A stretch of 22,224 bases of DNA, from the NCBI GenBank assembly GCA_005191425.1, contig SUPR01000061.1:1-22224 (forward strand). Reading direction: 5' to 3'. Of the stretch, positions 430 through 1,500 are shown one piece after another (the first letter of the stretch is position 1; each line of letters starts with the position of its first letter). Under the pieces are notes generated by a model. That model was given only the letters and a program-made list of their open reading frames with translations. It had not been told where the DNA came from and ran no database searches. This stretch comes from Candidatus Helarchaeota ASGARD archaeon Hel_GB_B (lineage in GTDB: Archaea; Asgardarchaeota; Lokiarchaeia; Helarchaeales; HEL-GB-B). The position numbers and the translations under genes are program-made.

Positions 430-1500
430 TCATTCTTTTAATAGGCGTAAAAATTCTTCGGGTTCTTCACCTTCTTCAATAAAAATTTCCTTTTGTACAC
501 CTGCGCGCTCTAATTCGAATTTTCTAGCTAATTGACCTGCTACGACTTTTTCTTTTACGTTCGCTTTTGAACCAATCCAAATAAATGTTGTATCAGAGTT
601 TCGGTCATCAAGAAGGAATACATCTTCAGAGTCTAGGCTTTCTGCTTTACACGGGACTTGTATATATATCATCTCATTTATTGAATCAAATTCTTCACTT
701 GAAATCCTGTATAGAACAGGTTTCCAGACTTCCTTCTCTACAGGTTTGAGTAATGATTCTGCCACGTCAGAATCTACAATTTTTAGACCTGAAACTAACT
801 TGAAAAACACAGGGTAGTTATGCTCGCTTCCTTGTTCAATAGTGGTAATTTCTGGTTTTCCTCTTCTTTCTTCGTCCAGTTTTTTTGATAAAACAGCTGC
901 TGCGAACTTTTCATCCGTTGAGGAATTAATGCCGATCCAAATAAATATTTGATCCCCATTATCGACAATATATGCATCGCCAGTAGTAAAAACAGGTTTA
1001 GGTATCTCTACCAATTCACCTTTTTCAATTCGATAAAATTTTGGTTTATCAAAAGCTTTAACTTCCTTAATTTCCCCGACAACCAAGTGTTTAGGGAATT
1101 CAGGAGGTTCGGTTCCCTCTTCTATATGGACAATTTTTGCACTATACATTTTTTCGGACGATTTTAATTTGGTAGATTCAGTTCCCGCCTTATATGATAA
1201 CATAGGACTTGACAAATTGCTACCCTTCCAGATCCATAACGTATTGTTATCTGGATCTGTAATAATGAAAATACCTCTAGAGTCTAAACTTTTAGTTGAA
1301 ACTACACCCTCTTTAGTTATTTGAAAAATCTTTAGCTCTTTTTTCTCTTTCTCAACTTCAGTATCTTGAATTCTAATAGATGTGGTTATTTCTTCTTCTC
1401 CTTTTTCACGTCTGGTATAATGACAGATAGGACACACAAGATAGTCATTTTCTTCATTCATCGGACTGCCACAACGGGGACATAATTTTTTTTGTTGCAT
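430..1500 (-). CDS. Gelsolin-family protein: N-terminal Zn ribbon plus three gelsolin-like domains
   Basis: CPRC-x12-CPIC at aa 7-26. Three repeats carry the gelsolin pattern (F/Y)xI...L(D/T)x(G/E)D(A/V)(F/Y)(I/L)(V/L)D...(I/F)WIG...EG.E at about aa 55-136, 152-236 and 259-356. SD-like AAGGTG at 1508-1513. Confidence 0.88.
   Translation of the reverse strand: MQQKKLCPRCGSPMNEENDYLVCPICHYTRREKGEEEITTSIRIQDTEVEKEKKELKIFQITKEGVVSTKSLDSRGIFIITDPDNNTLWIWKGSNLSSPMLSYKAGTESTKLKSSEKMYSAKIVHIEEGTEPPEFPKHLVVGEIKEVKAFDKPKFYRIEKGELVEIPKPVFTTGDAYIVDNGDQIFIWIGINSSTDEKFAAAVLSKKLDEERRGKPEITTIEQGSEHNYPVFFKLVSGLKIVDSDVAESLLKPVEKEVWKPVLYRISSEEFDSINEMIYIQVPCKAESLDSEDVFLLDDRNSDTTFIWIGSKANVKEKVVAGQLARKFELERAGVQKEIFIEEGEEPEEFLRLLKE

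Follow-up and report, generated by a model that had tools for sequence, protein, structure and literature searches.

Gene, zinc ribbon and linkers

The window analysed here, i.e., the whole stretch of 22,224 nucleotides of contig SUPR01000061.1, carries on its minus strand an open reading frame at positions 430-1500, and according to the ORF list and its translation this gene encodes a protein of 356 amino acids, the 356 codons being followed by a TGA stop codon (430-432); all features described below lie on the same strand. About 38 full-length homologues of 341-397 amino acids were recovered by homologue search, and the residue conservation given here was read from a 37-sequence family alignment, in which the three gelsolin domains were equated by common-profile alignment. 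From the N- to the C-terminus, the protein is made up of a CxxC...CxxC zinc ribbon, a charged linker and the gelsolin domains D1, D2 and D3. Reading of the flanking sequence revealed a candidate TATA-like box TTTATATA at 1541-1548, located 41-48 nt 5' of the ATG, a GGTG, likewise upstream of the ATG (1508-1511), and a run of seven T just past the stop codon as candidate archaeal terminator (417-423). Due to these upstream elements and the T-run, the gelsolin gene looks like a transcription unit of its own. A homologue with 78% identity shares the same flanking genes, namely those for a zinc-ribbon protein, a TPR-like protein and a flavin reductase, while the neighbours of a homologue with 50% identity are unrelated; the homologue neighbourhoods compared yielded no operon-level clue, neighbours being kept only in close relatives.

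The zinc ribbon comprises residues 1-31 (1408-1500) and contains four conserved cysteines arranged as C7-P-R-C10, within the knuckle CPRCG (1468-1482), and C23-P-I-C26, i.e., the knuckle CPIC (1423-1434). C23 and C26 were invariant among 34 module sequences, and C7 and C10 were present in at least 90% of them. Three short strands with pLDDT values of 70-83 were predicted for this part in the AF2 models; sequence and predicted model taken together, two CxxC knuckles are placed on a small beta structure, which bears out the N-terminal zinc ribbon proposed in the initial annotation. None of the Pfam zinc-ribbon families matched at its cut-off: Prok-RING_1 scored highest with 19.2 vs. 29.1 bits, and the other sub-threshold matches were Ribosomal_S27 (14.4 vs. 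22.3) and DZR (13.5 vs. 27.3). The ribbon is followed by a charged disordered linker (residues 32-53; 1342-1407), with pLDDT below 50 for residues 34-50. This linker had previously been described as acidic; its presence was confirmed, and its charge is mixed and only mildly acidic, as 9 acidic and 7 basic residues were counted among the 27 residues from 30 to 56.

The second linker, between D1 and D2 (residues 139-150; 1051-1086), is short, weakly conserved and of variable length among the homologues. As judged from mean pairwise identities, the ribbon (0.54) and D1 (0.50) are conserved well above their linkers, for which values of 0.30 (ribbon-D1) and 0.24 (D1-D2) were obtained. The best-conserved linker, with a mean pairwise identity of 0.65, is the one connecting D2 and D3 (residues 237-258; 727-792). 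It includes the tetrapeptide LKPV inside SLLKPVEK (733-756), with the family variants LKKV and LKHV, which by its position and sequence is a candidate WH2-like motif.

Gelsolin domains and their Ca2+ sites

The whole protein matched the Pfam gelsolin model PF00626 with 119.7 bits in three stretches, and in a six-frame scan of the genome D1, D2 and D3 scored 25.6, 55.8 and 46.7 bits, respectively, so that all three pass the gathering cut-off of 21 bits. Furthermore, the WxG motif was found in 37/37 sequences in each of the domains (W91/G93 in D1, W188/G190 in D2 and W308/G310 in D3). The three gelsolin folds of the initial annotation were thereby recovered, including that of D1, whose predicted structure matched a solved gelsolin domain as described below.

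2DGels are regulated by Ca2+, sever and cap actin filaments and sequester actin monomers. In the protein studied here, D2 (residues 151-236; 793-1050) corresponds to 2DGel domain 1 and to eukaryotic G1/G4, and D3 (residues 259-356; 433-726) to 2DGel domain 2. Residues 154-351 matched Loki2DGel (PDB 7WHG) at 1.5e-41 and Thor 2DGel3 at 7.7e-34. The Type II site of D2 is formed by G174, D175 and E197, each present in 37/37 sequences, and its Type I site by D209 (37/37), G214 and P216 (36/37). When aligned to human gelsolin by HMMER, G174/D175 fell on the 'GD' of G1 and E197 on 'DE', and D209, G214 and P216 were aligned to the human Type I Asp, Gly and Ala/Pro; in human G1 numbering, we take the equivalents of these D2 residues to be G65, D66, E97, D109 and G114. 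In D3, the Type II site consists of E292 (34/37), D293 and E317 (both 37/37), and a Type I-like site of E329 (Glu or Asp in 37/37), G334 and Q336. Thus, the Type II residues that had been noticed earlier in the second and third domains were found to be conserved throughout the family. Being two tandem domains with Type II and Type I signatures that are invariant or occupied by Asp/Glu in the 37 sequences, D2-D3 is an Asgard 2DGel core. A 2DGel in the strict sense has exactly two domains and an optional C-terminal tail, whereas here the ribbon and a third domain precede the core.

This third domain, D1 (residues 54-138; 1087-1341), belongs to the single-domain, ProGel-like class. Residues 1-140 were modelled with AF2 from 34 homologous modules, and in this model D1 displayed strands at residues 57-61, 66-69, 77-82, 87-92 and 122-127 and a helix at residues 99-115, with pLDDT values of 78-90; the resulting order strand-strand-strand-strand-helix-strand is the canonical one of gelsolin. 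An exhaustive structure search with VIA-align returned Thor ProGel (7C2F) as the top match of D1, with a Z score of 14.1 and an rmsd of 1.6 Å over 83 of 88 residues, and Foldseek likewise placed 7c2f_B first (E 2.1e-6, TM 0.81). The structures of G1, G2, G3 and 2DGels reached Z scores of 10-12, ProGel leading gelsolin G3, fragmin F3, adseverin A3 and the 2DGel domains by two Z units, and cofilin/ADF-H folds scored 5-7. A protein-atlas look-up with residues 1-140 returned gelsolin clusters alone, with scores below 0.9. Within the limits of structure prediction, D1 adopts a gelsolin fold. At the level of sequence profiles, domain 2 of Thor 2DGel3 (35.2 bits) and ProGel (33.7 bits) were about equally close to D1, and for this reason the link between D1 and ProGel is based on the structural match together with the tree that contains the single-domain proteins. 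The short single-domain candidates P0125 and P0103 gave no match to 7C2F with phmmer.

The positions of D1 that are equivalent to the Ca2+ sites of D2 and D3 are occupied by other residues in every homologue of the 37-sequence alignment. R75 at the first Type II position and L101 at the Type II Glu position vary, G76 stands at the Type II Asp position, which is never Asp, and the acidic Type I position is taken by K113 (Lys in 36 sequences and Arg in one).

The ribbon-gelsolin cassette and its proposed function

An exhaustive search of 1.84 billion representatives with a profile of the ribbon and D1 (ZnR+D1) revealed that this ZnR-Gel cassette occurs in three settings. The first is the N-terminus of the three-domain family described here. 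In the second, the cassette is N-terminal to a long coiled coil rich in Glu, Arg and Lys, the longer members of which (P0060, P0071 and P0076) end in a weakly HhH-like region (HHH_5, E 9.5e-4). In the third, it is located C-terminally, behind a coiled coil of 200-300 residues (P0080 and P0082-87), P0080 originating from a Helarchaeota MAG. The zinc ribbon accompanies a single-class gelsolin domain in all three architectures. Below the cassette proteins, the search listed free single-domain proteins, followed by 2DGels and eukaryotic gelsolins.

With regard to distribution, the order to which the window belongs was surveyed through its species-representative genomes; three of them contained the full-length form and three others fragments of it, each of these genomes also possessing ZnR-Gel paralogues. 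Matches at E <= 1e-20 were obtained in 135 of 144 other genomes of the class; among the matches listed, coverage was confined to residues ~150-355, and these were mostly open frames of ~300-385 amino acids, corresponding to the Loki2DGel form that is extended at its C-terminus. Across 161 genomes sampled from the whole phylum, matches to the cassette profile outside the source genome were limited to its gelsolin part, mostly in ORFs of 92-187 amino acids, and the ribbon part was matched in none of them. Among the genomes searched, the three-domain form is confined to one order of Lokiarchaeia. The NCBI records of the homologues are mostly named Candidatus Helarchaeota, and the DNA was seen in hydrothermal-vent and marine-sediment metagenomes; no RNA data set was listed for the gene.

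The source genome is 93.7% complete in 182 contigs. In the six-frame PF00626 scan, its only matches were the three domains of the protein encoded at 430-1500, and all single-class paralogues proved to be missed or under-scored by the Pfam model: altogether the genome has three genes with gelsolin domains, the other two being P0067 on contig 120, a ZnR-Gel-coil paralogue with CPRDG as first knuckle, and P0068 on contig 110, a GelX-like protein. Since no other Pfam-gelsolin match was detected, the protein studied here contains the only 2DGel core of the genome, and as the sole carrier of such a core it is probably the main Ca2+-responsive actin regulator of these archaea. A Lokiactin is encoded in the same genome (446 bits), in which the PIYEG motif is kept.

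Taken together, we consider it likely, with a probability of roughly 0.7, that the gene codes for a Helarchaeales 2DGel with an N-terminally fused module consisting of a ribbon, a linker and a single-class gelsolin domain free of Ca2+ sites. 2DGels act on actin under Ca2+ control (Akil et al., 2022; PMC9433394), and in the structures of the Loki and Heim 2DGels the Type I and Type II sites of both domains are occupied, four in total (PMC9433394). The WH2-like motif between the two domains of 2DGels reads LRRV, LKHV or LVDV (PMC9433394), and LKPV in the D2-D3 linker occupies the equivalent position. By analogy with Loki2DGel, D2-D3 would interact with actin and take up to four Ca2+, the WH2-like linker included, and the identity of ~50% and the intact signatures suggest that this would lead to Ca2+-dependent severing, capping and sequestration. 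In all likelihood, the protein would function as a 2DGel that has gained a further module.

As for the added module, Thor 1DGelX was shown to sever filaments without Ca2+ dependence and ProGel to bind to filament sides (PMC7444086). Since these members of the single-domain class act without Ca2+, the N-terminal cassette would most likely add a Ca2+-independent contact to the protein, for which a second actin or filament-side site similar to those of ProGel and 1DGelX appears the likeliest. The Type I Ca2+ is normally shared with a Glu of actin, E167 in the rabbit protein, which the Lokiactin of the source genome retains in its PIYEG motif. We infer that Lys113, located at the Type I position of D1, could form a direct pair with this Glu and take the place of the Ca2+ bridge. 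Tethered to D1, the zinc ribbon may serve for docking or targeting, as is suggested by its constant association with this domain and by the disordered linker. In its most far-reaching form, the proposal is that the ZnR-Gel cassette represents a previously unrecognised mobile and Ca2+-free actin-binding module, in which the conserved Lys hard-wires the contact to the actin Glu, which has been joined to three partners in one order and which, when combined with a 2DGel, would provide one constitutive and two Ca2+-gated contacts; this we put forward as a tentative reading, rated well below even.

An alternative is that the cassette serves targeting or regulation without contacting actin, docking the core to a membrane-associated protein, a nucleic acid or another cytoskeletal element, or autoinhibiting it. 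The C-terminal Zn domain of Loki2DGel showed no association with F-actin, and another cellular feature was proposed as its target (PMC9433394); moreover, the coiled coils and HhH-like ends of the paralogues suggest a scaffold role, and the attachment of the ribbon through a disordered linker would fit such a function. However, the tested members of the class of D1, i.e., Thor ProGel and 1DGelX, act on actin, and the top structural match of D1 is ProGel solved in complex with actin, so that we regard a module without actin contact as rather unlikely, albeit a serious contender.

Origin of D1 and comparison with known gelsolins

The domain tree was calculated with IQ-TREE (LG+C20+F+G4, PMSF) from 176 gelsolin domains. 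D1, D2 and D3 were taken from 11 family members, both domains from 18 2DGels and G1-G6 from seven eukaryotic proteins; 26 single domains linked to a zinc ribbon, 35 further Asgard proteins with a single domain and an archaeal protein with four domains completed the set, from which Thor ProGel and 1DGelX are absent. A branch supported with 99/99 in this tree, which is based on a 92-column alignment and a bootstrap that had not fully settled, separates a side of 71 domains, on which the zinc-ribbon-linked class is joined only by 34 of the 35 single-domain Asgard proteins, from a side holding every domain of 2DGel cores and eukaryotic gelsolins, including G3 and G6. All copies of D1 fell into a set of 23 domains together with the N-terminal ZnR-Gel-X paralogues (82/88), D2 clustered with 2DGel domain 1 and eukaryotic G1/G4 (99/100), and D3 with 2DGel domain 2. 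The per-domain phylogeny suggested in the initial annotation has thus assigned D1 to the single-domain Asgard class and D2 to the group of G1/G4 and 2DGel domain 1. The sites point in the same direction: Asp at the position of D175 was found in 0/72 domains of the single-domain class and Lys or Arg at the position of D209 in 72/72, whereas the Type II Asp and Glu are almost always present in 2DGel and eukaryotic domains. With the ZnR+D1 profile, single-domain proteins scored 72-84 bits and 2DGels 49-62 bits, and the closest matches in other Asgard families were ORFs of 92-104 amino acids.

The tree, the topology tests given below and the class-wide site pattern agree: the protein arose when a ZnR-single-gelsolin cassette was fused to a 2DGel, and it does not contain a decayed copy of one of its own domains. 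Such a copy would be expected if an internal triplication had been followed by decay, D1 then being a degenerate D2 or D3 that is devoid of Ca2+ sites. The gelsolin fold and the WxG motif common to all three domains are compatible with this origin, as are the nearly equal profile scores of D1 for Thor 2DGel3 domain 2 and ProGel. AU tests, however, rejected D1+D2 as a clade with a lnL difference of 122 (p = 1.6e-4) and D1+D3 with a difference of 114 (p = 1.1e-4), the 99/99 branch sets D1 apart from every domain of 2DGel cores and eukaryotic gelsolins, all 72 single-class domains lack the Type II Asp and have Lys/Arg at the Type I position, and the cassette is also found without any 2DGel core; a triplication is accordingly very improbable. 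The initial annotation stated that domain 1 had lost its Ca2+ residues. Their absence holds for every homologue, but a loss is contradicted by the AU tests and by the fact that the whole single-domain class is without them.

A slightly different question is posed by the eukaryotic three-domain gelsolins (severin, CapG, fragmin and G1-G3), of which the protein might be a surviving precursor. Three gelsolin domains in an Asgard archaeon invite this view, and with Foldseek the full-length AF2 model was aligned over ~330-370 columns to CapG, G1-G3 and villin V1-V3 (E 1e-19 to 1e-21), the relative placement of the domains being of low confidence in the AF2 models (pTM 0.37 and 0.55). Yet the order of the domains does not fit: where the eukaryotic proteins have G1-G2-G3, a single-class domain is followed here by a G1-like domain and one similar to domain 2 of 2DGels, so that the G1-like domain comes second and the additional domain stands at the N-terminus instead of being a C-terminal G3. 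Moreover, the 99/99 branch separates G3 and G6 from D1 and places them with the 2DGel domains, and among the genomes searched the architecture is restricted to one order of Lokiarchaeia. A direct precursor thus seems most improbable, and the earlier suggestion of a three-domain Asgard form independent of the eukaryotic ones holds, given the position of D1 in front of the core and apart from G3/G6. The fragmentation of the source MAG into 182 contigs might raise the suspicion that two adjacent genes were merged by an assembly or gene-calling error, but this can practically be dismissed in view of the unbroken reading frame, the ~38 homologues of the same architecture from many samples and contigs of up to 467 kb, and the near-identical DNA in runs from at least six studies.

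The accepted route of gelsolin evolution leads from one domain to two, three and finally six, and this evolution has been used to argue that Ca2+-regulated actin dynamics are older than eukaryotes. The fusion described here means that an Asgard lineage arrived at three domains by another route, i.e., by joining a Ca2+-free single-domain gelsolin to a 2DGel and not by re-duplication, and it calls for caution because the number of domains does not equal ancestry. The protein also represents a natural construct for the effect of a Ca2+-independent gelsolin domain on a Ca2+-gated severing core, and the class-wide exchange of Asp for Lys at the Type I site is testable.

That Helarchaeota 2DGels have an extra N-terminal 'potential divergent gelsolin domain' was mentioned in one sentence by Akil et al. 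(2022; PMC9433394), which includes no zinc ribbon, fold test, domain origin, Ca2+-site analysis or distribution. Consequently, the assumption that the combination of domains was undescribed does not hold for the extra N-terminal domain, while it does for the N-terminal zinc ribbon: in the literature searched, a library that is not the whole literature, we found no report of the N-terminal ribbon, the other cassette architectures, the origin of D1, the class-wide Lys or a characterisation of the protein, and no description of a '3DGel' or of an Asgard gelsolin with a zinc ribbon placed in this way.

Among characterised gelsolins, Loki2DGel (MKD1-2DGel; 7WHG) from the same class, Lokiarchaeia, likewise has two tandem domains, each carrying Type I and Type II signatures; its WH2-like motif between them is LVDV, where the candidate motif of the protein described here reads LKPV. 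It also possesses an appended CxxC...CxxC zinc module, which looks unrelated to the short N-terminal ribbon. In Loki2DGel, this zinc domain is C-terminal, comprises ~60 amino acids, follows a linker of 69-79 amino acids and is not accompanied by a third gelsolin domain, whereas the module described here is N-terminal, has ~30 amino acids and is followed by a third gelsolin domain. Thor ProGel and 1DGelX are single-domain Asgard gelsolins, the kind of protein with which D1 clusters, ProGel being also its top structural match, and the lack of a Ca2+ signature in D1 is in accordance with their reported Ca2+-independent activity; in contrast to ProGel, with which it shares an identity of ~24%, D1 is not free-standing, since the ribbon precedes it and the 2DGel core follows. 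The eukaryotic three-domain gelsolins CapG, severin, fragmin and G1-G3 have the same number of domains and a similar length, and D2 is G1-like (99/100). Unlike in these proteins, the extra domain is N-terminal and stems from another lineage, an equivalent of G3 is absent and only two domains are Ca2+-competent. The protein is, in conclusion, a convergent three-domain gelsolin that was made by fusion and is specific to one order.

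Lys or Arg at the Type I position and a four-domain form

In all 72 single-domain-class gelsolin domains of the tree set, the class to which D1 of the gene at 430-1500 (-) belongs, Lys or Arg stands where the Type I site has its Ca-binding Asp, whereas 2DGel domains and eukaryotic G1/G4 carry Asp or Glu there. No discussion of this class-wide Lys/Arg was found in Akil et al. (2020; PMC7444086) or Akil et al. (2022; PMC9433394). A further arrangement is seen in P0081, an NCBI metagenome protein of 477 aa with four gelsolin domains. Its first domain alone retains the Type II signature G-D...E, and at the Type I position domains 2-4 each carry Trp. 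Asgard-type gelsolins of more than two domains therefore occur in more than one form.

The zinc ribbon-gelsolin cassette beside coiled coils and other zinc ribbons

The cassette of zinc ribbon and D1-class gelsolin domain was also found joined to long helical segments. In P0080, which belongs to a Helarchaeota MAG, and in P0082-P0087, P0090 and P0091, all of them public metagenome proteins, an N-terminal coiled coil of 200-300 residues, weakly matched by crescentin, tropomyosin and intermediate-filament rod models, precedes a C-terminal CPxCG...CPNTxC motif and D1-class gelsolin domain; these proteins may be linkers between filaments and actin. No protein of this coiled-coil-first type was found in the Hel_GB_B assembly. 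In P0060, P0071 and P0076 the cassette comes first and a very long helix rich in Glu, Arg and Lys comes next; the C-terminal region of these proteins is conserved and weakly matches a helix-hairpin-helix model (HHH_5, E 9.5e-4).

CxxC...CxxC zinc ribbons are also present in the genes on both sides of 430-1500, namely at the C-terminus of a membrane protein (1-330, +) and as a double zinc ribbon in a 269-aa protein (1591-2400, -; DZR, 39 bits). This flanking arrangement recurs beside the 78%-identical homologue (L012) and is absent beside a 50%-identical homologue (L010).

A paralogue, a GelX-like protein and a second actin-family match in the same genome

A second, divergent actin-family match in this genome (152 bits; contig 168, locus L009, C168:13385-14515, -) lies within an 861-aa open frame, which may encode an actin-related domain fused to another part. 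The 228-aa paralogue P0067 (contig 120, L005:1489-2175, +), for which no Pfam family of any kind was matched, comprises a zinc ribbon with three Cys only (first knuckle CPRDG), a D1-class gelsolin domain and a repetitive Glu/Ala/Arg/Lys coil. In P0068 (290 aa; contig 110, L007:1438-2310, +), a gelsolin-like N-terminal domain, scoring below the Pfam cut-off at 17.8 bits, is joined through a long linker rich in Pro, Gln, Ser and Thr to a C-terminal domain of ~90 aa, an architecture that resembles that of 1DGelX/GelX.
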